Assembly (NCBI GenBank): GCA_000165345.1
Contig: CM000436.1
Location: 416,001-480,000 of the forward strand
Direction: 5' to 3'
DNA: 64,000 bases
The stretch's first letter is position 1. Each line of letters starts with the position of its first letter. Shown here piece after piece: positions 6,295-40,523 of this stretch. The translations under genes and the position numbers were made by a program. The notes beneath the pieces are model-generated. The model was not told the DNA's origin. It was given only the letters and a program-made list of their open reading frames with translations, and ran no database searches.

Positions 6295-6622
6295 CTCCGC
6301 GGGGCAACCCCACAATGCCCGCCATCGACTGCATGGATTTCCCGCCATGAAGCGGGTATTGATTTTAGGTTTTTTCTTTGGAGAGGGTTCCGAGCCTTAA
6401 GTACTGTCTAAAGTAATGGCCCCTCTTGGGCTAGAGGGGGGGAGCAGGAGGGAAAAGCTGTGAGAAAAAGGAAAGAGGAGGAGAGGATAAGAAAGAACTA
6501 AAAACGGCTAGTAAAAAGAGTAACAAGACTGTGTGAAAGAAGCCTCAAGTGTGAGGAAGAGGTAAGACTTTTGGAATTGGAAGAGACTAGAAGAGTCTAA
6601 CTTCAATAGAAAGACAGTTATA

Positions 6623-6660
6623 TTTCTATATATGTATATGTATATATACATATATAGAAA
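6623..6660. repeat. AT-rich hairpin: 17-bp inverted repeat TTTCTATATATGTATAT / ATATACATATATAGAAA with a 4-bp loop
   Basis: Direct reading. Lies between the coiled-coil gene 3' end and the USP7-like gene. Confidence 0.6.
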
Positions 6661-6805
6661 TATATATATATTTACATGCAATATATATAATAGCGAGTAA
6701 ATAAATCGTCAATAGAAGGATAATCTTCAAGCCTCTAATTTTAGGAGGGATTGAAAGATTGAATGAGCCAAGCAAGGATTTTTAATTTCTAGCAAGACTG
6801 AGTAA

Positions 6806-9800
6806 ATGCATACTGGGCGTAATATAGAGAGGCCGTCCATGGAAGGCTTCTCGAGTAGAGAAAAACAGTATGACTACTCGAATATACCAGGACGGCTTCA
6901 AAATGAATTGGAGTTTAAGGTTGAGGGTTTTAGAAGAAGGATTATGGAGATGATGAACAGTACCGAGGGGGGTACGAAGAACCGACTATATTCAAATATT
7001 CACAGTTATAAAAACTTTAATTTTCGAATAATGATTCTTCCAAAGGTTAAATTGACTAGTGGAGGTTCGTTAGAAGGTCATATTTCTGCTTATTTGGAGG
7101 CAATCCCATCGCAAAATTGGCCTTCAAACTGGGTATGGTTGAATACAAGATATTCTGTGACCTTAATTAACCAAAAAGATTACAGAAAATCTCACTTTAT
7201 GAGTGATATATTCAGCTTTAAAGGAGAAAATGACCCAAAGAAGAAACTTACATTGGAGGAGAGAAATTATGACTATAGCTCTGCAGGCCCAGAAGCCGAT
7301 CGTGGTTGGAGTGATTTTTTTAGCTTAAAGACTCTCTTGGATCCAAAAACTGGTTTTATTGATTCTGAGACAGAAACAGTAATTTTCAGAGCTGGTGTAT
7401 TTCCGGTTTTATGTGATCCAGTTTCGTGTGGAAAGTCAAATTTTGACCATTTGGGAACTGATCGATCACTAACTGGATATGTTGGAATTCGAAACCTTGG
7501 AGCTACATGTTATATGAACTCCCTACTACAATCTCTATATCATATTGGAAGATTCAGAAAAGCTGTCTATACTATTCCCCTGAACCCAAATAGAGTCACA
7601 TCAGGCTCATCATGTTCTAATACTCCGATAAGTAGAGAAACAAGACCTGAATTAACTCCTTTGAGTGCTTGTATTCCTAAGATAGATGATTTCGGAGAGG
7701 TCACTCCTCAAAGTATTAGTTCTGAATCTAATAGCCTTGCCATTTCTTTATTGGGAGAAGCCTCAGAGGATGCTGTAGAATGGACCAGTAATGTTGCAAA
7801 AAGTCTTTTTGAGTATGAAAGTGATGGTATTGCTAGTCTTGAAAGTATTATGTCTTCAAATGCATGCCAAGATTATGGACAGAATACCGGTGTAGTAAGC
7901 GGTAATGTATCTGGTCCGGGATCTACAATAGGAGGAAACTGCTCAGCTTCGGATGCTGGAAATGATCAAACGAAGATTAGTTCTGCTCTCCAAACCTTAT
8001 TTTACGAGCTTCAAACCTGTTCAGAACCTGTGAATTGTCGTGAACTGATGAGATCTTTTGGCTGGGATGCTTCAGATGCATTCACCCAACATGATGCACA
8101 AGAGTTAAATAGACTACTTTGTGACCGTCTTGAGGAGGAAATGAAGAATACTGCTGTTGATGGGAGCATTAAAGCTCTTTTTGAAGGAGAGTATGAAAAT
8201 TATATCGAGTGCTTGGATGTTGATTGTACTTCTAGAAGGAGAGAAAACTTTTACGACATTCAAGTTGATGTTGAAGGAGTAAAGTCATTAGAGGAAAGTC
8301 TCCAGCGTTTTGTAGAGGAAGAAATTTTGGATGGTGAAAACCTCTATGAGGCTGAGGGCTTTGGAAAACAGAGAGCAAAGAAGGGAGTTAGATTCCAAAG
8401 ATTCCCACCTGTTGTTCAGTTCCATTTGAAGAGATTCCAATTCAATATTCAAAGTATGGATATGGTCAAGTTGAATGATTACTTTACTTTTCCAGAAAAA
8501 TTGGATCTATCTAGCTTTGTGAATCATAATAATAAAGGAGAAACAGATACTGGTAATATTGTAGAAGGTACCGAAAAGTATATATTACATACTGTTGTCA
8601 TTCATCAGGGGGATGTTCATAGTGGACATTATTATGCCTATATACGTCCAAAACCTGATTCAGACTGGTTTAGATTTGACGATGAAAAGGTTACTCTAGT
8701 TTCATCTTCTACAGCTATTGAAGATAATTTTGGAGGCCATGAGTATGAAGTTTGGGATTATTTGGGAAACCCAGAAAGTGATATTCCAAAAAGATCCAAA
8801 ACCCACTCAGCTTACATCTTGGTATATGTTAGGGAGGACCAAGCTCAAGATTTGCTTTCGGAGCCAATTCCTCAGGAGGTCAATCCTGATTTAGTTTCTA
8901 AATACAGAAAAGAGATTGAGATGATGAATCTTCGAAAGAGACTTAGACAAGATCTGAATGAGCATGTTCGAATTCAATTATTGTTATCAACAAGTTATAA
9001 TATCTCATCCTCTTGTCGTCCAAAATCCCAAGGTCTTCATCAAAGTATTTCATCCTTCCCATGGAATTACATATTCAAATGTTCAAGGGACTTTTCTTTG
9101 TCTCAGTTCCATTCTGAGCTTGAAAAAAGATTCTTGAACAAAAGGATGCTTCATAATGATGTTCCTAGTAGTAGTATTAGTTGTAATAAAGCTTTTGGAT
9201 CTCATTTATTCCTTCTGGAAACCAACCCGGAGGGAAACCACACTGCTTCAGGAGGAGCAAGAGGAATGGGTGGATTACATCATCATATTGGATACTCAAA
9301 TGGAGGCCCTACATCCTCAACCGGTCTATCCTTTTATACATGCATTTCATCTCCCCAAGGAGAGGGAATTAGCTCTGGAAACCGGATATCAGATTCTCAA
9401 AGAGGCGGAGCTGGTGGAATGCTAGGTAGAGCTATTGGATTTGGAAGTTCAACTTCTGGTACAAGATCAGGAGATGAGATCTTAATGTCGGATCTATGTA
9501 GAAGATACCATCGTGCAGGCCTTTGGGACTCATCTTGCCCAACTTTATATATGTGTTTGTATCTTGATGATGTCTCAAGCTTATTAATGGACCGAATCCC
9601 TCCAAATCTACCAATTAATGCAGATGGTTCATATTTAGAGAAGAGACAAAGGATTGAAAATAAGCTCAGAAACTTTAATGATAATGGAGGAGGAGAAGTT
9701 TTGCTTCTCTTGAGATATTTTGATATCTCAAACCCTAGGATCAATGAATTCTCCTTAAAATACTCTAGAAATCAGGAGATTCCAAATCTTTATAATCTAG

Positions 9801-14737: not shown

Positions 14738-15307
14738 TTATAATTGTCCACATTCATATATAATTATAGGTATCTTAGGTTTACTATTTGGAGGTAGAAC
14801 TGTGGCATTTTCAATCTTTTTCAAAGTTGCAAAAGAATCATGTCCTAATAATTGTCCAAAAACTACGTGTTTATTATCTAACCAAGAACATGTATTACAA
14901 GTAATAAAGAATTGGCATCCATTTGTATTTGGGCTACCATTATTTGCCATAGAAAGAAGTCCAGGTTTTGTATGCTTGATTTCAAAATTTTCATCATTAA
15001 AATAGCTTGTATTATATATAGATGTACTACCAGTACCATCTCCATTTACGAAATCACCACCTTGTATTACAAAGTCTTTGATTACTCTATGTATTGTAGA
15101 TCCTTTATATCCCACACTTTTTAAGTTTTTTTTATATTCTCCAGTACAAAATTGTCTAAAGTTTTCACTTGTTTTGGGCACAATATCTTGAAATAATTCT
15201 ATTACTAGTCTTCCAATTTTATTGTTTTCATCTAGTAAACAAATATCTAAAAAGACTACAGGATTATCTTTATGCCTTTGTGGTCTTAATTCTGGGTCTT
15301 TAATCAT
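14738..15307 (-). CDS. Peptidyl-prolyl cis-trans isomerase, cyclophilin type
   Basis: Classic cyclophilin blocks: [61 protein letters not shown]. Lies only 14 bp from the REI1 stop, convergent. Confidence 0.9.
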
Positions 15308-15392
15308 TTTGAATTTGAGTATAACTTTTCATTTATTTGTTTGATTTTATATTTAGTTTTTTTCTACTTTTTTGACTTAATTCATATTTATT

Positions 15393-15428
15393 CAAACTTT
15401 GGCGGGCCACAATTCCCGCCAAAGTTTG
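15393..15428. promoter_or_regulatory. Inverted repeat of E2F-like sites CAAACTTTGGCGGG-(8 bp)-CCCGCCAAAGTTTG in the divergent cyclophilin / nucleoporin promoter
   Basis: Perfect 14-bp arms read directly. Core TTTGGCGGG / CCCGCCAAA matches the E2F consensus TTTSSCGC. Sits 85 bp upstream of cyclophilin and 50 bp upstream of the nucleoporin start. Confidence 0.6.
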
Positions 15429-15477
15429 AAATAAATTTTTGAGTAAAAAGTAGATTATATTGTATTATATAATATAG

Positions 15478-17190
15478 ATGAGTAATAGGAGACCATGTCA
15501 ATTCTATTTGAGAGGATCATGTAGATTTGGTGATAATTGTAGAGACTACCATCCAAATGGATCTATGTTTGATCAGGGTATCAATAGTAGAGGTGGTAAT
15601 GTATTGAGTGGTACTAATACAAGTGGGTTTGGAGTGGGAGGAGGTCAGTTTAATCCATTTTCTGGCTCTATTGGTAAGCCTTTAGGTGATATGAATAGTT
15701 CATTTACTTCAGGAGGAGGAACAGGTATGGGTCCATTTGGGAATTTTGGAGGTCCATTTGGAGGTGGTAGTTCAGGAGCAATAGGAGTAGGTAATGGTTC
15801 TTTTGGTGGTGGGATAACATCAAATCCATTTGGAGGTGGGAATACATCAACTACAGGATCCATTTTTGGATCAAGTCCATTTGGAAGTTCAGTTAGTGGA
15901 TCTGGTTCTTCAACAATATCTACTACAGGGCCTACAACAGGGTCTATTTTTGGGTCAAGTCCATTTGGAGGTTCAATTAGTGGGTCTGGCTCTACATCTG
16001 CAATTGGATCCAGTCCATTTGGATCTGCAGTTGGTGGATCAGGGTCAATATCTTCTTCTTCTTCTTCTTCTTCTTCTTCTTCTTCTTCTTCTTCTTCTAC
16101 AGGAAATGTTAAGCCATCAAAATCTGATAACCCAACATTACAGATTTTGGAACTCATTGGAGTAGTTGTTAATAGTGGAGTATGGCCATTTGGAAGGATA
16201 GGATTATTAAATCAGTCTCAAGATTCATCTAATTCTCAAGTATTTCCAAGTTTGGATTTAAGTATTGAAGAATATAGATGGAAGTTTTATCAGAGTGATC
16301 CAGGTAATTGGAATAATTTACATTTGGAAACTTTAAGATTACTAACACAACAATATAATTCGTTTATTGAGCAGGGAAAAATTCAATCAAAGCTTCCAGC
16401 TACACATCAACTATATAATTTAGACTTTAGTTTATATTCTAAGATTGGAAACTGGTATTTACCTAATTTAGGTAAAGACTATGTAAATAAGCCTAATAAT
16501 ACAAATACTGGTGTTACTACTACTACTATTAATACTAATACTAATACTAATAATACTACTAATACTATTGGATCTATAGCAAATCCTTTTGGAGGTACAA
16601 CATTAGGATTTGGCCAAGGAACAGTATTACAAAGTAATAATTCTAATACAAGTCCATTTGGAGTCTTTGGATCTTCTTCTGCTTCATCTTCTTCCATTAT
16701 GTCTAATAATGCTTTGAGTCCTTTTGGAGGAACAGGAGGTGGTAATGGTATTGGAAGTGGTATAGTTAACAATTCAGTATTTGGTATTACAAACCAATCA
16801 CAAACACAGTCACAACAACAACAACAACAAACATCACCTTTTTCTGGTGGTAATATTCAAACAAATATAAATCAACCACTTTCTGTTGAAAGTAGTAATA
16901 ATAACAATAATAACTTTGGTATTTTTGGATCACAAGGTACCGGTTCAAATATATCCAACAATTTTAATAATATTTTTGGAAATATAACAAATCAACAAAA
17001 TCAAACTTCAAAGTCTGCTGGAACTAATATAAAGTATTCCTATAATAACCCAGATGTGAATGATGATAATCATTCATTTAATTCTCAAAATTTACAAGAA
17101 TGGGAATTGAATGCATTTAAAAGTTCAACTTTTGAAGAAAACAAGATTCCTGAAAAGATACCTCCAAGATACCTTAGAATGTATAGTTGA
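15478..17190 (+). CDS. FG-repeat nucleoporin with N-terminal CCCH zinc finger (Nup42/NUPL2-hCG1-like)
   Basis: N-terminus RPCQFYLRGSCRFGDNCRDYHP (C-x8-C-x5-C-x3-H). Then many FG/PFG repeats (SSPFGS, SNPFGGG, NPFGGT, SPFGVFG, NNFGIFG) in an S/G/N/T/Q-rich low-complexity background. That architecture is characteristic of Nup42/NUPL2. Confidence 0.6.
   Translation: MSNRRPCQFYLRGSCRFGDNCRDYHPNGSMFDQGINSRGGNVLSGTNTSGFGVGGGQFNPFSGSIGKPLGDMNSSFTSGGGTGMGPFGNFGGPFGGGSSGAIGVGNGSFGGGITSNPFGGGNTSTTGSIFGSSPFGSSVSGSGSSTISTTGPTTGSIFGSSPFGGSISGSGSTSAIGSSPFGSAVGGSGSISSSSSSSSSSSSSSSSTGNVKPSKSDNPTLQILELIGVVVNSGVWPFGRIGLLNQSQDSSNSQVFPSLDLSIEEYRWKFYQSDPGNWNNLHLETLRLLTQQYNSFIEQGKIQSKLPATHQLYNLDFSLYSKIGNWYLPNLGKDYVNKPNNTNTGVTTTTINTNTNTNNTTNTIGSIANPFGGTTLGFGQGTVLQSNNSNTSPFGVFGSSSASSSSIMSNNALSPFGGTGGGNGIGSGIVNNSVFGITNQSQTQSQQQQQQTSPFSGGNIQTNINQPLSVESSNNNNNNFGIFGSQGTGSNISNNFNNIFGNITNQQNQTSKSAGTNIKYSYNNPDVNDDNHSFNSQNLQEWELNAFKSSTFEENKIPEKIPPRYLRMYS
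16051..16098 (+). repeat. (TCT)16 trinucleotide microsatellite encoding a poly-Ser run inside the nucleoporin CDS
   Basis: Direct reading: tcttcttct... repeated about 16 times. Confidence 0.9.
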
Positions 17191-17424
17191 ATGGAATACC
17201 AAATATAAACTAGCCATTATATATTTAAGTAACTTTATATTAGAAATATAATACTTATAATACAATTCTAAAAATAATAATTATAATAATAAGACTATTT
17301 ACTTGTATTTATCATAATCTTTAATCTCCAATGTCTAAATTTTTAAATGTTATATAAAACTAATATTATTCTATAACAATAATGTATAAAATTTCGAGTG
17401 AATTTATTTATATATAAAAAAAAG

Positions 17425-17498
17425 CGCCGCCACTGGGGATCGAACCCAGGACCACATGGTTAAGAGCCATGCGCTCTACCTAGCTGAGCTATAGCGGC
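17425..17498 (-). tRNA. tRNA-Lys (anticodon CUU)
   Basis: Reverse complement reads GCCGCTA-TA-GCTCAGCTAGGTAGAGC-G-CATGG-CTCTTAA-CCATG-TGGTC-CTGGG-TTCGATC-CCCAG-TGGCGGC-G. 7-bp acceptor stem, D arm, 5-bp anticodon stem with loop CTCTTAA (anticodon CTT), T arm with TTCGATC loop. No encoded CCA. Confidence 0.85.
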
Positions 17499-26115: not shown

Positions 26116-26631
26116 AAATTGATAAGGTATTAAACTTGGAAAATTATCAACACCTTAAAGATTAACTTTGACTTAATAATATTAACAAGAATTTTTTTCA
26201 TAGGCCAGTCCTAATTCGCCAATTTACATACTCTTTCTCGTTGCTTTATATTCAGAATGTATTATTCACAAAAATTCTGTGGTGCTTTCTTTTGCTTTTT
26301 AATCTTTCTTAATTTCCCCCCAATATCTATTTAGTAAAAAAAAAATTGAATTCCAAAAACTTACAAAATTTCAATCCCTTCAATTTCTCTTGATAATTAT
26401 TTGTAGCAAAATTATCTCAAATCAACCAATAACCAAGTCAAATAATGCTTAGCTTTATTCTCCTCCCTCCTTACACCTCAGTATTTGATATTTTATTCAA
26501 ATTATTTAAAAAAACTATATATAGGATTTTTAGTCTCCAAATCTCAATTCCATCAAAATTTATTGATTTATACTTTTTTTTATTACCTCTACTTTTTTAT
26601 ATTATTTTAATATGCTCACTCTGTGTGGAAC

Positions 26632-26651
26632 TTTCCCGCCTAGGCGGGAAA
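26632..26651. promoter_or_regulatory. Perfect 20-bp palindrome TTTCCCGCCTAGGCGGGAAA (back-to-back E2F-like half-sites)
   Basis: Direct reading; the reverse complement is identical. Located in the upstream region of the MFS transporter gene (minus strand), 13 bp past the stop of the 2120-aa gene. Confidence 0.6.
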
Positions 26652-26663
26652 CCGGGTATCAAT

Positions 26664-29600
26664 TTAATACATATTGTCCAATACACCTGAAGTATTTGAA
26701 TTAAAACCACAGAAATCACTAAAATTTGCTTCAAACACTCCATTAATTAATGTGCAACTTTCTTGAATAAATCCTCCAACGTCATCAATTAGAGCCCATT
26801 GTGGCTCACTTGAGCCTGCATCCTTAATTATCAATAGTTTAAATTTGTCTACAGCTTTTCTGGCAGATAGGAGCTCATTCCCTGAAATATTAAACTGCCA
26901 AATTGGTAGTTTAGTGGTTTTTACTTCTATTAAAGCTAGGACTTGTTGTTTGTAATTCCGGGAAACTGAAAATTCTTCTTCAGAAAAGTATTCTCTTAAT
27001 AGAATGAAGTCAAAAGGAAGAAAACTCTCATTAAGTGAATTTAACCAAATTAGTTTAATAGTTGTCGTATCTGACTCTTTAAAACACTTGATCTTGCATT
27101 TTATAAATAGGTCTCTTTGCTGATCCTGAAATATATTATTATCCTCAATTTTCATATCCTCAATTCCTGTCCAATCTTTCAAGTCTTCCATATCTATTAC
27201 TTCATTTTGAATATAATTATTTACAAACTTTCTAGATAAGTAGTCTTCAATTAAATTATGATCAATAGATTTCAAGGTCAGCTTACGTGAGATTGCATTT
27301 GGGATTATGGCTTCAAAAGAAACTTTCTCACCCCAAAACCCCACCATTTTCGTGATTTCTTCTATTGTAAGACTCTCATCTGTTGCATTTCCCAGAGAAA
27401 GAGGATTTTTCTTTATATATTCTTTGATTATTGAGTCCAAGTTACTCTCTATTACATCTGTATTTTTAGTCATTTCTTTGTAATCACCAGTATTATTATT
27501 TTTAACTTTAATATGTGGATCATTATTATCAGCTTTATTATAATCAACTCTTTTAATTGATAATTCACTTAATAAATCATTTTTTTCAACATGTAATGAT
27601 TTATTTTCAATATCTGTATCTTTTCTTAACAAACATCCGCTTCTTGAACACTTTTTAAGTAGTTCAAAACCTTCTTTAACTACATTATCCACTGTGAAAC
27701 GCTCATCTCTTTTACTACTTAGATCATCCAAAATTGGAACATGTTTTGAAAGTAGTAAAAGTCTTTGTGAGCTGGAAAGAATCAAGAGTTCGTACAAATC
27801 AATATTAATTATACTATTTAAACCTGTCAAACCTTTTAATGGATCCAATAGCAAAGTATACAAATCCTTAAGTTGGTTACTTTTATCCATACTTTTATTC
27901 ACAAGTAATATTGAAGCTGAATTCTTATTGGGAATCTGTCTAAATAATACACCAATCTTCCTTCTGCTCGTTTTTGGTAAATGTTTGTCATTAATATTAA
28001 GATCAAACTTAAGCTCAATATCGTCAACCTCAACTTCATAAGTATTTACAAATGAAATAAGCCAATTAGCTATTTGGTAAGCTATTTCTTCATTTGCATT
28101 AGAATATCTTTCAGAAACTGAAAGTGGCTCGAATTCATAAGAATTTGAAATTTGTTCAAGTATTTCACTTTCGGATACACAAAATTCACAGTCAGTAACT
28201 GAATGATTTGAATTCTTGCTCGTTAAAGATTGTTCACTATCAAAAGTTTTTTTTTCTTCTAATATTCTCATGATTGACAAATAAATATCAAGAGATTTGT
28301 GTTTAAATAAGAGTATCAAGATACCCCAAAATTCCAAAGTTAGCCATATTTTATTTTTTCCTTTATTTGCAAATTTTATATGACTTCTAATATTACGTCC
28401 ATAATTAACTTTATAAGTTACTTTGTAACATTCTGAGAGTGTTTTTACTTTTAAAATATCTTTATAAAAAAATTGAGAACTTGGGGACGATGAAATTGCC
28501 AATGGAATCTGAAAGCTATCACTTCTTAAGCTTCCAATAGGGAAATCTTCCACACAACATTGTTCACGCTTCAGAAATTTATAAATACCCTTAATTGGTA
28601 TCTTTGCGTTATCGAGAAACTCACTCCACCACGAATTCTTTTTAGATTGACTCATTTTCTGAAAAACTTTCAAAAATGTATTAATTGATACGTTAATGAA
28701 AGATTCAAATTTGATTTTTCCTTCTTTAGACTCATCTTTAAGTAAATTTGGGCATTCCCTTAGCCATAAATAAGCATAATGGTGATGTATTGGTTGTTCT
28801 GAAACTAAAGATAAAAAGAATGGTCTTAAATTACTAATTTTACTTTTATTAATAAACTTGCTGAGAACAATAAATGTTCCATGAAAGAAATCATATGGAT
28901 CTGACCAAACCATATTATTATAATCAATAGGTACCCAATTATACAAAGTACTCTTCATCAATGGAATATAAAGCAAACTTTCATTGTAAAATACCTTTTT
29001 AATGTTCATTGAAATATCAAAATCTGTCTGATGGCCTAAAATATGATAAATATCAGAAATCATTTCGATGTCCGAGGGGCGATGAAGGCTTCGGTTTAAT
29101 GAATTATCATCAAAATTTGACCATTCATCCATTAAAGAAGGCCACCAATCTGAAGCAAATAACTTTTCTTTAGTTATACCAAATCCAAAAATTGCCAATT
29201 CTATAATATGGTTTAAATCAGGGTCATATGAAGGCTTTAATTTGATCTGCCTACTTTTTTGAACCACTTCATTATCCCTAATATTCATTACCCTCTTATA
29301 ATCTCGCAAAATTCGAATTAAAGATATGGAAGAAATCTGAGTTGTGACGCCAACCTCTTCCAAAGTTTCTGATATTAGTTTTGATTCATTACCAATATCT
29401 TCCTCTGTTCTATTTAATGTATAATGAGCAGAACAAGGTTCATTATTTTCACGTGATTTTGGAATCTTATATCCATTCCTTAAAGTTACTGGTAACAAAT
29501 TCAATACAATTTGAGAGATATGCTTAATAATTCCATCCAAGTTTTTATTAATTTTGGGAATAAACAGTTCACTCGGTCTGCTTAATAGCAAATCTTCACA

Positions 29601-32600
29601 AAAATCCACCGTATCACAATCTTGTATTTGTTCATTATTAATCTGGCTCATATAATAGCTAAAATAATTATCATTATATAATGAAATTGGTATCCATGGG
29701 TAACTTGATAATATTTCATTCAAAAAAGATGAGTTATATGAACGTCTTGAATATTCATTAGCTATTTGGATGATTGCTCCAGCTCTCATTACATAAATTA
29801 AATGTTTACAATAAAAACAATGCGATGAACTAATTGGATAAATATTTCTATCAACCATCCAACTCAATGGAGATGCATCTGTTTTTGGAGGTAATCTATC
29901 AAAGTTACATCCTACATACCACTGTTCAAGAAGGTTAATAAATTTATTAGTGAATACCCTGAATGCCAAATCTTTATCATTCTCATTTAAATGATCCGAA
30001 TTTTGGACGATATAATCTGATGATATCTCCACAAAGTGAAACCTATCAGATACTTTTGGAAATACCCATTCAACCAATGGAGGCCATAAAGGAGGGACAA
30101 TCGTCAAACCTTTGTATTCAAATGATTTATCGGAATTATATATTGAAGTTTTGTCTTTAACATTTTTCCGATTGCTATTTGATGTTTTTAGTTGGTCAAA
30201 ATTTGAATATGACTTTGAACTAAACTTATTGGACCTTTCCCAGCTTGAATGAAGTAGAATTAAAGATGTCAATGACTTGCTTACCTGAGACATTCTTAAA
30301 GCTACAGAAGTAGGATACACCATAACCTCATTTTCTCTTGTTTCATTCTTGCATCTATTACACTTCAAACTAGATGTGATCATTCTAGAACACCTAGCCA
30401 GTTTGTTCTTGTTTAACAACTCTTCTTCATTTGCATAGCTTTTTGGTAGATCCTTATTGTAAAGTAAAGCCTTTAAAAATGAAGGAGAATAAGTCTGAAC
30501 TACTATTGGAAGCTTAATTAGAAAGCGATTATCATCCTCTACAATGCTTGCCTCCTCTATTGCCAAAGGAGTAATTTTGAGAAGTAGTTTCTGTATATCA
30601 CTATTAATTGCATTTTCCCATCCTTTTTCGAGTAATAAATCAACCTGTTCAGCAATTAATTTAAAAAAAATAGATGGAGTTATCTTCTCAATCTTAAAAT
30701 CTTGGTTAATCATGCTCTTTATTCTGTATGGAGCTATTTTATATACCCTATCACTAAAAAATTCAAATGGGCATACTTTTCCTATTATTTCGGAATACTT
30801 TTGCAAGCAATGTTCTTGAAAGTAACTATCAAACGATTCATCTGAAATGTAAACTTTCACAATACTCGATTTTTCTATAGAAACTCTCTTACCCTCCCTA
30901 GTAGGTATAATTGGCAAACCTGAAATTCCTTCAAATTCTTTCAAACTTTCCACATCTCCTTCTTTCTGAGGAAATAAATAGCTATATAATATTAATAATT
31001 CCTCATCAGAAATACTCTCCAAAAATTTCAAAGGTTTCAATTCTAAAAAAATCTTCAATATATCCAAATTCCTTACATTATATGATGATATTATTTGTGC
31101 TACCAAAACTTGCAACATTTGCAATGGCCTCGTGCAAAGAAAATGCATGCATGTGTGCCCGCCTATCAGTGAGGGGTGCAATACCGGTCTCATGTGGACA
31201 CTCAGCATGTAGAGAAAATTCCAATGTAAATTGCAAAAAATACAAAAACCTTCATGGAAAGTATTGTTTTTTATGCAAAGATCATTGAATTGAATATTCG
31301 TGGAAATTTTATCAAGAAAGCAAAATGAGCCATCAATGTTCATAAACACAGGCTTTTTGACTAACTCATCAATACAAATCGAAGATAATGTGCAATAGTT
31401 TTGGCATTGGTTCAGGTTGTCAAGTTTTGGCGGGAGCCAACTAAATTTAATAAATTCTGAAGTATTTAAAACGAATGGTTTTAAGTTGTAATCAAAGCTT
31501 GATTCCTGCATTGTTTGTAACGGCAAAGACTTTGAAGTGAGTAAATTACTCATAAAAAGAGAATATTTTTGGTTAATTAAGCAAGATTTTCTTGAGCATG
31601 ATAATTTTGGATTAATCATACTAGCAACAAATTGTGGGATTTGTTTCTTGAAAATAACATCAAGAATTGTAGAATTCCAGATATTGTCAGCCATGACATC
31701 CTCTCTATTTGCTGTTAAAATCAAATCTTGGATATTAACATGAAATGGAAGATAGATTCTATGGTTCAAAGGGAACGTACAAAACAACTTTCCTGTAACC
31801 CTTTTATGTTTTCCAAAAGTTGATGAACCAAACGAGAATGAAGATGAGTTTATTATCCTTTCACCTTTATCTATTTCAAGTCTCAAATTTGAATGGAACA
31901 AAGGAAGAGCAATAGACCATACTGTTGAAGATCTTGTAGCTCTATCTCTGAGAGTGGAGCTCTCAAGCTTTTGATCCTCTGAAATTGGTATTTCCCAGTC
32001 CACTATAAGGTATTTAGAAGAAATTAAACTCTCTCTTAATAGTTTTCCTTTATTCAAATCTAAATCGTCATCATCAAATTGGGCTATCTCAATTTTTGTA
32101 AATCTGAAACTTTTTATTGAAGAAAGACTATCATCTTTGAATTCATCTAGGTTGAAAGTTTCACCTAGACTTTGAGAAATATCAGGAACTGAAATCAAGT
32201 CATTTAAAGTTAATCTCCTTCTTAAAAGTGGATAAATTGTATTCTTTTCAAAGGAACAAAAATCCGAGTCTTTTCTGGGCTCAACATCTACCACTATTGA
32301 TTTAATATTTCTCAAAAAGAGAAGAATATCATGTACGAAAGTGTTACGAATTGCAGATAAAATTGATGAGAATTTCTGTTTCATGTTCTTCTCAAATGGA
32401 AGATAGTGCAATGTTCCTAAGTTGCTTGAACTTTGGACAAATTTAGGCCCAAATTCAGATCTTATATTATCAAACCTCCAAGGAGTCCCATATAAACTAA
32501 TATTTGAATGAATTGTTTTTACTACTTCTGGGAAATCTGACTCTTCTATCCATTTTGGTACAATATAACTCAATTCAATTTCTTCATCAGGTTTACTTGA

Positions 32601-33026
32601 AAACTTTATAGAGTATCCACCACTAAATATACAAGGATTATCAGTTATTTTAAATATTGACCTATATCCAATACCTTTTTCTCCTGTAAAATATCTTGAT
32701 TCTGAATTCTTTTTAGACGAATTTCCAATATCGCATACAGACTCGATATTTTCACGTGTCATCCCTTTTTCATTTATATGGAATACCAAACAATCCCATC
32801 TTAACAATATGTAAACTTGAGGGATACCCTCACCTATTTCATTAAAATTAAAGTTAGAGTCATCTGCATTCTGAAGAAGCTCCAATAATACACGTCCAAA
32901 AGATGAATAAAGTTCATTTGATAATATTCCTATTGACCTGTCTTGCCTGTCTCTTTGAGATTTATTTGAAACGAATAAGCTCTCTCTTATCTCTTGAATG
33001 TGCTTCTTTGTTTGTTCATTTTGCAT
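26664..33026 (-). CDS. Very large protein (2120 aa) with N-terminal sacsin/NOV-like GHKL (HSP90-like) ATPase domain
   Basis: N-terminal motifs RVLLELLQNADDS (N-box, cf. sacsin ELIQNADDA) and GEKGIGYRSIFKITDNP (G-box, GxGxxS). The remainder has no recognised domains. Confidence 0.55.
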   Translation of the reverse strand: MQNEQTKKHIQEIRESLFVSNKSQRDRQDRSIGILSNELYSSFGRVLLELLQNADDSNFNFNEIGEGIPQVYILLRWDCLVFHINEKGMTRENIESVCDIGNSSKKNSESRYFTGEKGIGYRSIFKITDNPCIFSGGYSIKFSSKPDEEIELSYIVPKWIEESDFPEVVKTIHSNISLYGTPWRFDNIRSEFGPKFVQSSSNLGTLHYLPFEKNMKQKFSSILSAIRNTFVHDILLFLRNIKSIVVDVEPRKDSDFCSFEKNTIYPLLRRRLTLNDLISVPDISQSLGETFNLDEFKDDSLSSIKSFRFTKIEIAQFDDDDLDLNKGKLLRESLISSKYLIVDWEIPISEDQKLESSTLRDRATRSSTVWSIALPLFHSNLRLEIDKGERIINSSSFSFGSSTFGKHKRVTGKLFCTFPLNHRIYLPFHVNIQDLILTANREDVMADNIWNSTILDVIFKKQIPQFVASMINPKLSCSRKSCLINQKYSLFMSNLLTSKSLPLQTMQESSFDYNLKPFVLNTSEFIKFSWLPPKLDNLNQCQNYCTLSSICIDELVKKPVFMNIDGSFCFLDKISTNIQFNDLCIKNNTFHEGFCIFCNLHWNFLYMLSVHMRPVLHPSLIGGHTCMHFLCTRPLQMLQVLVAQIISSYNVRNLDILKIFLELKPLKFLESISDEELLILYSYLFPQKEGDVESLKEFEGISGLPIIPTREGKRVSIEKSSIVKVYISDESFDSYFQEHCLQKYSEIIGKVCPFEFFSDRVYKIAPYRIKSMINQDFKIEKITPSIFFKLIAEQVDLLLEKGWENAINSDIQKLLLKITPLAIEEASIVEDDNRFLIKLPIVVQTYSPSFLKALLYNKDLPKSYANEEELLNKNKLARCSRMITSSLKCNRCKNETRENEVMVYPTSVALRMSQVSKSLTSLILLHSSWERSNKFSSKSYSNFDQLKTSNSNRKNVKDKTSIYNSDKSFEYKGLTIVPPLWPPLVEWVFPKVSDRFHFVEISSDYIVQNSDHLNENDKDLAFRVFTNKFINLLEQWYVGCNFDRLPPKTDASPLSWMVDRNIYPISSSHCFYCKHLIYVMRAGAIIQIANEYSRRSYNSSFLNEILSSYPWIPISLYNDNYFSYYMSQINNEQIQDCDTVDFCEDLLLSRPSELFIPKINKNLDGIIKHISQIVLNLLPVTLRNGYKIPKSRENNEPCSAHYTLNRTEEDIGNESKLISETLEEVGVTTQISSISLIRILRDYKRVMNIRDNEVVQKSRQIKLKPSYDPDLNHIIELAIFGFGITKEKLFASDWWPSLMDEWSNFDDNSLNRSLHRPSDIEMISDIYHILGHQTDFDISMNIKKVFYNESLLYIPLMKSTLYNWVPIDYNNMVWSDPYDFFHGTFIVLSKFINKSKISNLRPFFLSLVSEQPIHHHYAYLWLRECPNLLKDESKEGKIKFESFINVSINTFLKVFQKMSQSKKNSWWSEFLDNAKIPIKGIYKFLKREQCCVEDFPIGSLRSDSFQIPLAISSSPSSQFFYKDILKVKTLSECYKVTYKVNYGRNIRSHIKFANKGKNKIWLTLEFWGILILLFKHKSLDIYLSIMRILEEKKTFDSEQSLTSKNSNHSVTDCEFCVSESEILEQISNSYEFEPLSVSERYSNANEEIAYQIANWLISFVNTYEVEVDDIELKFDLNINDKHLPKTSRRKIGVLFRQIPNKNSASILLVNKSMDKSNQLKDLYTLLLDPLKGLTGLNSIINIDLYELLILSSSQRLLLLSKHVPILDDLSSKRDERFTVDNVVKEGFELLKKCSRSGCLLRKDTDIENKSLHVEKNDLLSELSIKRVDYNKADNNDPHIKVKNNNTGDYKEMTKNTDVIESNLDSIIKEYIKKNPLSLGNATDESLTIEEITKMVGFWGEKVSFEAIIPNAISRKLTLKSIDHNLIEDYLSRKFVNNYIQNEVIDMEDLKDWTGIEDMKIEDNNIFQDQQRDLFIKCKIKCFKESDTTTIKLIWLNSLNESFLPFDFILLREYFSEEEFSVSRNYKQQVLALIEVKTTKLPIWQFNISGNELLSARKAVDKFKLLIIKDAGSSEPQWALIDDVGGFIQESCTLINGVFEANFSDFCGFNSNTSGVLDNMY

Positions 33027-33554: not shown

Positions 33555-33576
33555 AATTTTGCATGCATGCAAAATT
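33555..33576. promoter_or_regulatory. Perfect 22-bp palindrome AATTTTGCATGCATGCAAAATT (TGCATGCA AP2-like core) upstream of the 2120-aa GHKL-protein gene
   Basis: Direct reading; the reverse complement is identical. TGCATGCA is a known over-represented apicomplexan upstream motif (ApiAP2-type). Confidence 0.55.
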
Positions 33577-38109: not shown

Positions 38110-38751
38110 TTAGAGCTTCTCCTGAACTCTTTTAGAGACTATTCTAAGGTGGTTGTAGACTTTTCCAGGAGGAGTTCCCAAAATTAAACTACATAGAGCA
38201 TCTCTTGCTAATTTAATATTATGAAAGGCTCCCATTAAATGGAGTTTCTGACCAGCTAAGACAATCCTAGTTCTGGTTGAATTTTCTATAGCATACTTTG
38301 TTTTACCATCCCTACCAGAAATACGACCAATACAACGTGACAAATGTGCTCCATTCAATCTTTTTACGTCTTTAATTTCAAAGCTTTCTATATAAAGATC
38401 ATCCAATCTCAAAAGAGCAATGGCATCTTGAAGCTCAAATCCAAGTAGAAAAGCCTTAATAAAGTCAACTCCTTTTTGAAGAGATCCAATATCAGTGCAA
38501 TCTGGCCCATATTTAAGCTCTACACATCTTCTCTTTGTATTCATTCTTACATGTAATCCCATATGTTCTACCAAAGGAGTAACAATATTAATCCATTGGT
38601 TCTTTAAAGGAGTCATTCTATTTTCAGGAACCATCACTCTTCTTATTTCATTACTTCTGTTAACTTCTGTTCCAGTTAAAGGCTTAAAAGGTCCTTCAGT
38701 CCGTCTCTCCTCCTCAACCATATCCATATCCATACTCTTTGTTTCTCCCAT
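38110..38751 (-). CDS. PNO1: KH-domain pre-40S ribosome biogenesis factor Pno1/Dim2
   Basis: Near full-length alignment to Pno1: MTPLKNQWINIVTPLVEHMGL ... GSLQKGVDFIKAFLLGFELQDAIALLRLDDLYIESFEIKDVKRLNGAHLSRCIGRISGRDGKTKYAIENSTRTRIVLAGQKLHLMGAFHNIKLARDALCSLILGTPPGKVYNHLR. Confidence 0.85.
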   Translation of the reverse strand: MGETKSMDMDMVEEERRTEGPFKPLTGTEVNRSNEIRRVMVPENRMTPLKNQWINIVTPLVEHMGLHVRMNTKRRCVELKYGPDCTDIGSLQKGVDFIKAFLLGFELQDAIALLRLDDLYIESFEIKDVKRLNGAHLSRCIGRISGRDGKTKYAIENSTRTRIVLAGQKLHLMGAFHNIKLARDALCSLILGTPPGKVYNHLRIVSKRVQEKL

Positions 38752-39308
38752 ATGTAATAAACCTAAAGAAATATACTTCTAAGATATCCAATTCTTCTTT
38801 TCCCTACAAAAATCTACTCTGGAAAAATCTTAATAATCTCCTCCTTAATTATTCTTCTTCGCTGCTTAACTCTATTTTATACCGTCAAAATTAACCATTG
38901 GGTGTGCCCGCCTAAAAGTTGGCGCCGAAGGCTTAAAAATGGGTTTTTGGAGGGGAAAGTCATCTTAAGAATAAAAGAAAGAGGAAGATGTGGAATATAT
39001 TTTATTAGAAGAAAAAGTGTTGAAATGTAATGAGAGTGCTTTAAAAGATATAGGTGTGAAAATCGGACTACATTCATGTGAGGTTAAATCTGTTACTTGG
39101 AATGTAATGTTATTTAGTGTTAATAATAGAGGTAATTTATATGAATTACTATTATAACATAAAATTTATATGGATTAAAATAAGATTAAAAGGAGAAGAA
39201 TTAGTAAGAAACAATATTCTTAGAAATAAATAAGAACTTTAGAAGCTTAAAAAAGCAAAATAACAAAATCTGTGCAACAGTAATAGCTTTAACTAAGGTT
39301 TTTAATCA

Positions 39309-40523
39309 ATGATGATTACAAAAGGAGGAGATTACTCAGAATATTCAGAAATACATACACAGGATATTGAGAAATCTAAAGATTATGACCAAGAATGTGT
39401 AGAATTAAGGAAAAGTGTGAGAGAATATCTCGAAAAAGAAAGCAAAATAAACTTATACTTTTCAGAAAAGAAGAGTTATTTGATAAACAAAGAATTTGTA
39501 GATATTCAGGTCCAATTAAACTCACAACTTTGCCCAAAAGTTAAACTTTGGAAACGAATTGAAGAACCAAACTCAAAAGAATTCTCCAAATTAAAAAATA
39601 ACCCAACTCAACATCTTTTTGCAATTAAAATCTATTCAAAACCCCAACTCATTCGGAGAAACATTGTCTATTCTTCAGACAGGAAAATCAGGACCCAAAT
39701 GCATCGTGTAATTAACGAAATCAAGATTCTACAATTCCTTGCAAAAACCGATCCCACATACTACTATATTGCTAAATTACACAAAGTTCTTGAATCTTTT
39801 CCTTCTACCTTATCTTCCGGAAAATTGTATCTCATCTTTGACTTTTTTCCGATTGGACCCACAATGGCGCCCGACACAGGGGCAAGGCGCGCGCGCGCGT
39901 GCCCGGGGTTTGAAAAGAATCTTTTAGTGTATACTCCAAGTCCTGCATTAGAGAGGACAGAGGTAAGTATAAGGAGAATGGCTTACTGTATTGGAGTAGC
40001 TCTATCTAGACTTCATGAGTTAGGGATTGTTCATAGAGATGTAAAACCTGATAATATTATGCTTACACATACTGGAGATGCATTTTTGAATGACTTTAAT
40101 TCTGCAGAATTTTTAATTCAAGGTAAATATGTTCAGGGCACTGAAGGAACATATGCATTTTTTCCTCCTGAGCATTGTAATATAAACAACAATAGCAATA
40201 AAATTGTTACTGAAAGGAACGAATCATCCGAAATCAATGAACAAGAAGAATGTTCCCAATCTACGCTCCAATTGGGATGTCCAGCAGATATGTGGGCTCT
40301 TGGAGTCACAATTTGGTGTTGGTTTTATGGTACACTACCTTTTCAAGGAAATAGTATTTTAGAGCTTTTTGACAATATTACAAAATGTAAGATTGAGTTC
40401 CCTAGACAGCCTACTTTATCAAATGAGTGTATTAATGCCATTTTGCATCTTTTAGACCCAGAACCGAATTCCCGTTGGACTGCTCGTCAGTTTCTTGAGT
40501 CCGACTGGTTTTCTAAAAACTAA
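39309..40523 (+). CDS. Divergent Ser/Thr protein kinase with a GC-rich insertion in the catalytic domain
   Basis: Kinase subdomains FAIKIYSK (VAIK), EIKILQFL (alpha-C Glu), LYLIFDFFPIG (hinge), IVHRDVKPDNIML (catalytic loop), DFN instead of DFG, GTEGTYAFFPPE (APE-like), DMWALGVTIWCWFYGTLPF. Confidence 0.75.
   Translation: MMITKGGDYSEYSEIHTQDIEKSKDYDQECVELRKSVREYLEKESKINLYFSEKKSYLINKEFVDIQVQLNSQLCPKVKLWKRIEEPNSKEFSKLKNNPTQHLFAIKIYSKPQLIRRNIVYSSDRKIRTQMHRVINEIKILQFLAKTDPTYYYIAKLHKVLESFPSTLSSGKLYLIFDFFPIGPTMAPDTGARRARACPGFEKNLLVYTPSPALERTEVSIRRMAYCIGVALSRLHELGIVHRDVKPDNIMLTHTGDAFLNDFNSAEFLIQGKYVQGTEGTYAFFPPEHCNINNNSNKIVTERNESSEINEQEECSQSTLQLGCPADMWALGVTIWCWFYGTLPFQGNSILELFDNITKCKIEFPRQPTLSNECINAILHLLDPEPNSRWTARQFLESDWFSKN
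39866..39915 (+). repeat. GC-rich island with an alternating (CG)6 tract (GGCGCCCGACACAGGGGCAAGGCGCGCGCGCGCGTGCCCGGGG) inside the kinase CDS
   Basis: About 80% GC over roughly 50 nt in a genome of about 30% GC. Encodes an in-frame insertion (MAPDTGARRARACPGF) between hinge and catalytic loop. Confidence 0.8.

Follow-up and report, generated by a model that had tools for sequence, protein, structure and literature searches.

An inverted repeat between two divergent genes

The DNA analysed here (the window) is a stretch of 64,000 nucleotides from chromosome 8 of Cryptosporidium parvum IOWA. Two divergent genes in this window are separated by 170 bp, and the short region between them carries an inverted repeat with an E2F-type site in each arm. 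The features of the locus are as follows.

14738..15307, minus strand: cyclophilin gene of the PPIH / U-snRNP cyclophilin type (PF00160), with its ATG 84 nt from the palindrome
15308..15477, no strand: divergent intergenic region of 170 bp, putative bidirectional promoter, defined by the ORFs and by gene calls in five NCBI assemblies
15478..17190, plus strand: CCCH zinc-finger FG-repeat nucleoporin gene (Nup42-like), with its ATG 48 nt from the palindrome
15391..15406, plus strand: left arm TTCAAACTTTGGCGGG, with the E2F-type site TTTGGCGGG at 15398-15406
15407..15414, no strand: 8-nt spacer ccacaatt, hypervariable, present as the exact reverse complement in some C. parvum isolates
15415..15430, minus strand: right arm CCCGCCAAAGTTTGAA, with the second TTTGGCGGG on the minus strand at 15415-15423
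15386..15436, no strand: extended quasi-palindrome from folds, with 22/23-nt arms and one bulged A

A previous sequence-only reading had placed a cyclophilin gene (minus strand, start 15307) and a CCCH/FG nucleoporin gene (plus strand, start 15478) on the two sides of the element, and both the ORFs and the NCBI names agree with this assignment. The best named matches of the cyclophilin are peptidyl-prolyl isomerase H and the U-snRNP-associated cyclophilin. NCBI records list the gene at 15478-17190 as "CCCH like finger domain nucleoporin", and its C. felis orthologue gives weak matches to PF18044 and PF27899 (NUP42_C). Since the gene calls hold and the two ATGs are divergent at a distance of 170 bp, the description of the region as a bidirectional promoter is sound. 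An identical cyclophilin protein is encoded on megabase-scale records in five NCBI assemblies, and in a comparison over 1.7 kb GCA_015245375.1, GCA_035232765.1, and GCA_031892065.1 agree with the window at every position (100% identity). The first of these is C. parvum IOWA-ATCC and the second is the IOWA II-BGF T2T genome (PMC12179316); UTR boundaries were curated in the CpBGF annotation (PMC12179316).

Two minor observations concern the neighbourhood. The upstream neighbour gene is Cgd8_1550, and C. tyzzeri has approximately 268 extra bases in the intergenic sequence upstream of cgd8_1550 relative to C. parvum (13199/13200 of the window against L004 1221-1489). A tRNA-Lys gene (CTT) is located at 17424-17498 on the minus strand in the intergenic region after the nucleoporin gene, which explains the GC-core match GCCGCC at 17426.

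The sequence CAAACTTTGGCGGG ccacaatt CCCGCCAAAGTTTG, previously described as a pair of perfect 14-bp inverted arms, was found at 15393-15428. The arms are perfect as claimed, and they extend to 16 nt rather than 14. When the window was shuffled 100 times (first-order Markov), perfect inverted repeats with a spacer of at most 20 nt reached an arm length of no more than 13 nt, and inverted repeats with arms of at least 10 nt and at least six G/C per arm occurred at a mean of 0.07 per shuffle. The predicted folds of the palindrome region have energies of -20.1 kcal/mol as single-stranded DNA (z = -9.0 against shuffles) and -27.6 kcal/mol as RNA (z of about -9). The inverted repeat at 15391-15430 is non-random.

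No second close copy of the 16-nt arm exists in the window, and a dispersed repeat or a transposon end was therefore ruled out. The arm-N8-arm pattern had no match in JGI metagenome contigs. An Rfam scan of the whole window matched a tRNA alone, with nothing at 15391-15430 or at a second palindrome at 26632-26651, which is described below.

E2F-type sites in both arms

The two arms had been called E2F-like, and each of them contains TTTGGCGGG, which is one of two canonical E2F/DP sites, together with TTTCCCGCC, quoted by Oberstaller et al. (2013; PMC3734150). On both strands, TTTGGCGGG agrees with the E2F-motif consensus, i.e., TTTSSCGC or a GGCGGG or [C/G]GCGC[G/C] core flanked by T/A. The sites face inward with their T-runs pointing outward, their cores are 14 nt apart from start to start, and they lie upstream of both divergent ATGs, at 48 and 84 nt. 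The locus thus presents two inverted E2F-type sites within one promoter. The arms had further been described as two facing half-sites; they do face each other, but each arm holds a full site. As an E2F/DP heterodimer occupies one site, the pair would therefore take two heterodimers and not "a dimeric factor", as had been suggested.

E2F-type motifs are strongly over-represented in the window. Against an expectation of 0.27, TTTSGCGSS is found 13 times; GGCGGGAAA and TGGCGCCA, each with 0.08 expected, are found three and four times, respectively. Intergenic sequence makes up 27% of the window and holds 27 of its 36 GC-core clusters, mostly upstream of ATGs. The E2F-like GGCGGG / [C/G]GCGC[G/C] motif exceeds all other upstream motifs of C. 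parvum in abundance (Oberstaller et al., 2013; PMC3734150). Sporozoite ATAC-seq peaks, the majority of them annotated as bidirectional promoters, have E2F as their top motif (bioRxiv 10.1101/2025.01.17.633476), and the organism is reported to have both E2F and DP proteins (PMC3734150; PMC12246861; bioRxiv 10.1101/2025.01.17.633476). In reviews, functional validation is described as lacking for any Cryptosporidium E2F site or factor.

By their sequence, the sites of the palindrome belong to this published E2F-like motif family, with which they share the GGCGGG core with a T-run, the upstream location, and the strong non-coding enrichment. A difference is that the literature, in the portions available, treats single sites, whereas here two sites face each other within a perfect palindrome with arms of 16 to 23 nt; palindromic or doubled sites are not mentioned in those portions of the Cryptosporidium E2F-motif literature. 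From the published motif alone, we infer E2F/DP as the probable binding factor.

The paired cores and their spacing are conserved in seven species

To compare the element between species, the orthologous intergenic regions were recovered via orthologues of the neighbouring genes from C. hominis (three assemblies), C. tyzzeri, C. meleagridis (two), chipmunk genotype I, C. ubiquitum, C. canis (two), C. felis, C. ryanae, and C. andersoni. Seven intestinal species (C. parvum, C. hominis, C. tyzzeri, C. meleagridis, chipmunk genotype I, C. ubiquitum, and C. canis) share the arrangement GGCGGG-N7/8-CCCGCC at the orthologous position. The left core GGCGGG is invariant in all 12 aligned genomes of these seven species, while C. 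ubiquitum has the variant GGCGCC and chipmunk genotype I the variant CCCGCT as the right core. The core-to-core spacing of 7-8 nt is kept throughout, although the sequence between the cores varies freely, which is indirect evidence that the two sites might be occupied jointly. Elsewhere in the intergenic region, divergence amounts to 15% (C. meleagridis), 22% (chipmunk genotype I), 41% (C. ubiquitum), and 51% (C. canis).

Outside these species, the C. ryanae region, which was not alignable, contains a 9-nt perfect repeat, CGTGTGGCG ccaac CGCCACACG, at a corresponding location approximately 35-55 nt from the nucleoporin ATG, and C. felis has facing GGCGG / CCGCC cores without the extended repeat. 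No GGCGGG pair was found in the orthologous region of C. andersoni, where the palindrome ATATCGCGATAT alone is present.

Non-conservation in related species had been named beforehand as grounds for refuting the proposal; with an E2F-type core at the orthologous position, and the paired cores and 7-8-nt spacing kept in seven species, the proposal stands on this point. The persistence of cores and spacing in a region whose remaining sequence differs by up to about 50% supports the view that they behave as a constrained functional pair of sites. The E2F-type identity, putative as it is, is likewise supported by both the motif family and this conservation. In chipmunk genotype I the T-runs are gone on both arms and one core reads CCCGCT, which indicates that the full E2F consensus is not strictly maintained.

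Two inverted E2F sites are also found in the adenovirus E2 early and human E2F1 promoters, in which co-operative loading, as a point of difference, needs the viral E4orf6/7 (PMC4863625). The present element resembles them in having an inverted E2F-type pair in a short promoter with kept spacing (here 7-8 nt in seven species); it differs from them in that their flanks lie outside any long perfect palindrome and in that the promoter here is putatively bidirectional. We know of no E4orf6/7-like partner in Cryptosporidium, and the inter-site spacing in the adenovirus E2 promoter is larger.

The arms change in pairs

Perfect or near-perfect arms with a short spacer are found in C. parvum (16/16 positions paired, 8-nt spacer) and in C. 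meleagridis, where the arm AATTAATTGAAGTTTTGGCGGGA is perfect over 23/23 positions around a 5-nt spacer. The arm bases outside the cores, which number 7-10 in C. parvum and up to 17 in C. meleagridis, are not conserved in sequence while their symmetry is conserved. As MAFFT put the right arm of C. meleagridis out of register and failed to place its 1-nt length difference inside the spacer, paired arm changes were counted outward from the cores.

Between C. parvum and C. meleagridis three arm positions have changed, each with the complementary change in the opposite arm (C-G to T-A, A-T to G-C, and C-G to G-C), and there is no unpaired change. Under independent substitution at a flank divergence of 15-17%, at least three paired changes among ten positions are expected with a probability of about 1e-4, and of about 1e-5 if the absence of any unpaired change is also required. 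Chipmunk genotype I shows two further paired changes, which abolish the T-run on both arms together and bring the matched pairs in these two species to five. Homogenisation of the arms is not instantaneous: C. tyzzeri has one unpaired change and chipmunk genotype I has three, with 22 of 25 positions paired. As arms, the paired positions are reduced to the 6-nt cores in C. canis and to 5 nt in C. ubiquitum.

The outer arm sequences bear on the idea that a homodimeric factor other than E2F/DP reads the whole 16-nt arm, each monomer recognising CAAACTTTGGCGGG. Perfect dyad symmetry with a fixed centre of 7-8 nt is typical of homodimer operators. However, the outer arm reads CAAAC, GAAGT, or CAAGC/CAATC in closely related species, and the factor would have had to change its specificity repeatedly; invariance is confined to the GGCGGG cores, which agree with the E2F-like motif found genome-wide (PMC3734150). 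Because the outer arm sequence changes between close species, we consider this reading highly improbable.

Paired arm changes are expected under selection on an RNA or cruciform hairpin as well as under template switching. It is conceivable, although rather unlikely, that selection on secondary structure keeps the palindrome perfect, acting either on a promoter cruciform, which could aid factor loading or nucleosome exclusion, or on a stable hairpin in the 5'-UTR RNA of one or both of the divergent transcripts, in either of which a palindromic sequence would form it. The five arm changes of C. meleagridis and chipmunk genotype I that are fully compensated fit such selection, as do the very stable predicted hairpins and a loop that is free to vary and flip, as if it were unimportant. 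However, a structured RNA would be expected to keep its helix in every species with the element, and here the helix is absent in C. canis and C. ubiquitum, where five to six paired positions remain and the element persists, and one mismatch is tolerated in C. tyzzeri and three in chipmunk genotype I. Furthermore, no Rfam family was matched in the scan of the window, and a hairpin of -27 kcal/mol approximately 50 nt before an ATG would be costly, as it is expected to hinder scanning. The exact inversion of the spacer, described below, is a mutational signature and not a product of selection on the stem.

The spacer is inverted between close relatives

The following spacers, given in the cyclophilin sense, were found between the arms (L numbers are our labels).

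aattgtgg: C. parvum; window, L002, L003, L005, and one Logan contig
aattgggg (ccccaatt in the orientation of the window): C. parvum; GCA_048859185.1 (L001)
ccccaatt (aattgggg in the orientation of the window): C. parvum; L008, Logan contig from DRR729234
cctcaatt: close relative; ERR14760746
aattgcgg: C. tyzzeri
gtctggag (ctccagac in the orientation of the window): C. hominis, three assemblies
aacatct: C. meleagridis; GCA_039657295.1
agatgtt: C. meleagridis; GCA_001593445.1

The spacer of L008 is the exact reverse complement of that of L001. The L008 form is common to 14 samples, and outside the spacer it is 100% identical to the window over 1811 nt. Likewise, the spacers of the two C. meleagridis assemblies GCA_039657295.1 and GCA_001593445.1 are exact reverse complements of each other (L009 against L010/L024). 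Inversion of the spacer between unchanged arms of close relatives is therefore seen in assemblies of both C. parvum and C. meleagridis. At the same loci, no spacer flips were seen for eight further inverted repeats (arms of 9-12 nt) in the genomes compared, and spacer flipping is thus not a general property of inverted repeats at these loci.

The spacer also varies in ways other than inversion. Once the flips are undone, all four bases occur at position 15409 among C. parvum, ERR14760746, and C. tyzzeri, in genomes that are otherwise 97-100% identical. The C. hominis spacer matches any C. parvum form at no more than 3 of 8 positions, while the surrounding 115 columns differ at 1-2 positions, and it looks replaced. 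A search for its donor as a local reverse complement gave no match of at least 9 nt in the 22-kb locus or in the window.

Palindromes are known trouble spots for polymerases and give rise to amplification chimeras, and the flips are known from assemblies only. The flips and spacer variants could on these grounds be artefacts of assembly or whole-genome amplification at a hairpin, in which case the locus would consist of two conserved sites with chance symmetry in their flanks; we regard this combination as very improbable. Arm and spacer together measure 24 nt, and if the Logan contigs were built with 31-mers, single k-mers would join the asymmetric flank, the arm, and the whole spacer, and the orientation would be resolved. 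Moreover, the flipped contig recurs in 14 samples with the flip in mid-contig, the flipped and unflipped forms bear different point alleles, and an independent flip separates the two C. meleagridis assemblies. An assembly artefact is thus an unlikely source of the flips. As to chance symmetry, perfect arms of 16-23 nt were absent from the 100 shuffles, and the paired changes have a probability of about 1e-4 or less.

A probable template-switching origin of the symmetry

The co-variation of the arms and the flipping of the spacer point to a mutational process at the DNA level as the reason for the perfect palindrome. Template switching between short inverted repeats is known to homogenise arms and to invert spacers; it recurs, and it prefers longer arms and short spacers (PMC8604942). 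An intramolecular switch copies one arm from the other, while an intermolecular switch inverts the spacer (PMC8604942). The same group reported that template switching expands inverted repeats at transcription-factor sites in yeast promoters, which can alter expression (PMC13100816).

From this published signature, we infer template switching as the probable mechanism, and with a probability of about 0.6 we read the element as two inward-facing E2F/DP-type sites whose symmetry arose by replication template switching between the arms. According to this model, the paired GC cores and their spacing would be the functionally constrained part of a promoter shared by the cyclophilin and nucleoporin genes, and the cores would most likely recruit two E2F/DP heterodimers that open or activate it in both directions. 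The perfect symmetry beyond the cores would most likely be a product of template switching and not a feature for protein recognition. Because the starting state, an inverted pair of 9-mers 8 nt apart, would already be hairpin-capable, template switching could extend the symmetry, maintain its perfection, and sometimes flip the centre. An intramolecular switch, in which one arm is copied from the other, would homogenise and lengthen the arms, and an intermolecular switch across the fork would copy the spacer in reverse; hairpin or cruciform intermediates would presumably form in vivo. A dimeric factor or a cruciform, as invoked in the sequence-only reading, is not needed for explaining the symmetry. 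Template switching explains neither the four alleles at 15409 nor the unrelated C. hominis spacer.

The element shares several properties with inverted repeats of the Ripley model, which are known from yeast coding sequences (PMC8604942), transcription-factor sites in yeast promoters (PMC13100816), and human mutation clusters (PMC5453318). These are the exact reversal of the spacer between close relatives with unchanged arms, arm differences that arise or vanish in pairs, occurrence in separate lineages, and the favouring of longer arms and short spacers. Unlike those repeats, it is anchored on two conserved E2F-type sites and shows a hypervariability of the spacer beyond what template switching alone would give. 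Hairpin inversions in plastid non-coding DNA, in which a loop of a few bases between short inverted repeats flips recurrently and homoplasiously between close taxa (PMC6824564), are similar in this behaviour. They differ in that the present element lies in a nuclear promoter rather than an organellar spacer and has its stem built on regulatory sites. While the E2F-like motif family and template-switched inverted repeats were already known, a Cryptosporidium locus with co-varying arms and recurrent spacer inversion is new here, and our literature search found no report of template-switch inverted repeats in Cryptosporidium or any apicomplexan.

Since the arms are identical, the spacer is the sole asymmetric part of the 40-bp element. 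Its inversion would move the better full-consensus site (TTTGGCGGGAA...) from the nucleoporin-proximal position, as in the window, to the cyclophilin-proximal one. That the flip is a recurrent reversible switch and not mere mutational noise is a long shot. If true, i.e., if both orientations coexist in populations and shift the balance of the divergent transcripts, the locus would represent a eukaryotic promoter element that inverts without a recombinase. In a related scenario, extrusion of a cruciform between two bound E2F/DP complexes might contribute to the working of these very short bidirectional promoters.

In Cryptosporidium, E2F/DP is regarded as the main activator during early asexual development, and its sites await validation. 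The locus offers a compact, genus-conserved test case: its two sites have a fixed spacing, natural variants exist, and both genes are ready for use with reporters. If the template-switching reading is correct, perfect promoter palindromes can arise and persist here by this process, and a perfect dyad need not mean a dimer-binding site or a selected structure. Clustered differences such as the 8-nt difference between C. parvum and C. hominis would then be single events rather than independent SNPs, which bears on typing and divergence estimates. The flipping four-allele spacer is a possible small, fast-evolving marker within C. parvum and C. meleagridis.

Other doubled sites and palindromes in the window

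Two further inverted pairs of E2F-type cores are found in the window.

26632..26651, no strand: second doubled E2F-type element TTTCCCGCCTAGGCGGGAAA, 20-bp perfect palindrome
38907..38926, no strand: third inverted core pair CCCGCC taaaagtt GGCGCC, with 14-nt start-to-start spacing

The first of these had been reported before and is present as a perfect palindrome at these coordinates. It lies 12 nt past the stop of a SACS-like gene (26664-33026, minus strand) and 516 nt upstream of the ATG of an MFS transporter (26115), and the perfect form is shared by C. parvum, C. hominis, and C. meleagridis; chipmunk genotype I departs from it by one change and C. ubiquitum by two. The pair at 38907-38926 is located between divergent genes with ATGs at 38751 (minus strand) and 39309 (plus strand). 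The more general claim that the lineage uses symmetric doubled sites is suggestive, but the cases are too few to carry it: the 28 intergenic cores of the window include three close inverted pairs.

The 26632-26651 palindrome is directly adjoined, at 26612-26631, by a non-coding block of 20 nt, atgctcactctgtgtggaac. It is invariant in six genomes of five species except for one change in C. meleagridis, and it is kept in C. ubiquitum, though the intergenic region at 15.4 kb has diverged there by about 40%. In the sense of the MFS gene the block reads ...CACAGA followed directly by GTGAGC..., which could represent a transcription start and the 5' splice site of a 5'-UTR intron.

Another palindrome, AATTTTGCATGCATGCAAAATT at 33555-33576, is perfect over 22 bp around the ApiAP2 motif TGCATGCA; C. 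hominis and C. meleagridis retain its core TTTTGCATGCATGCAAAA, and C. ubiquitum has it almost unchanged. The longest inverted repeat of the window, at 6619-6664, has perfect AT-rich arms of 21 nt with a 4-nt spacer and lies 142 nt upstream of a ubiquitin-hydrolase-type gene at 6806. Finally, a (GC)n run, GGCGCGCGCGCGCG, is found at 39886-39899 within the ORF 39309-40523, in a genome with 31% G+C.
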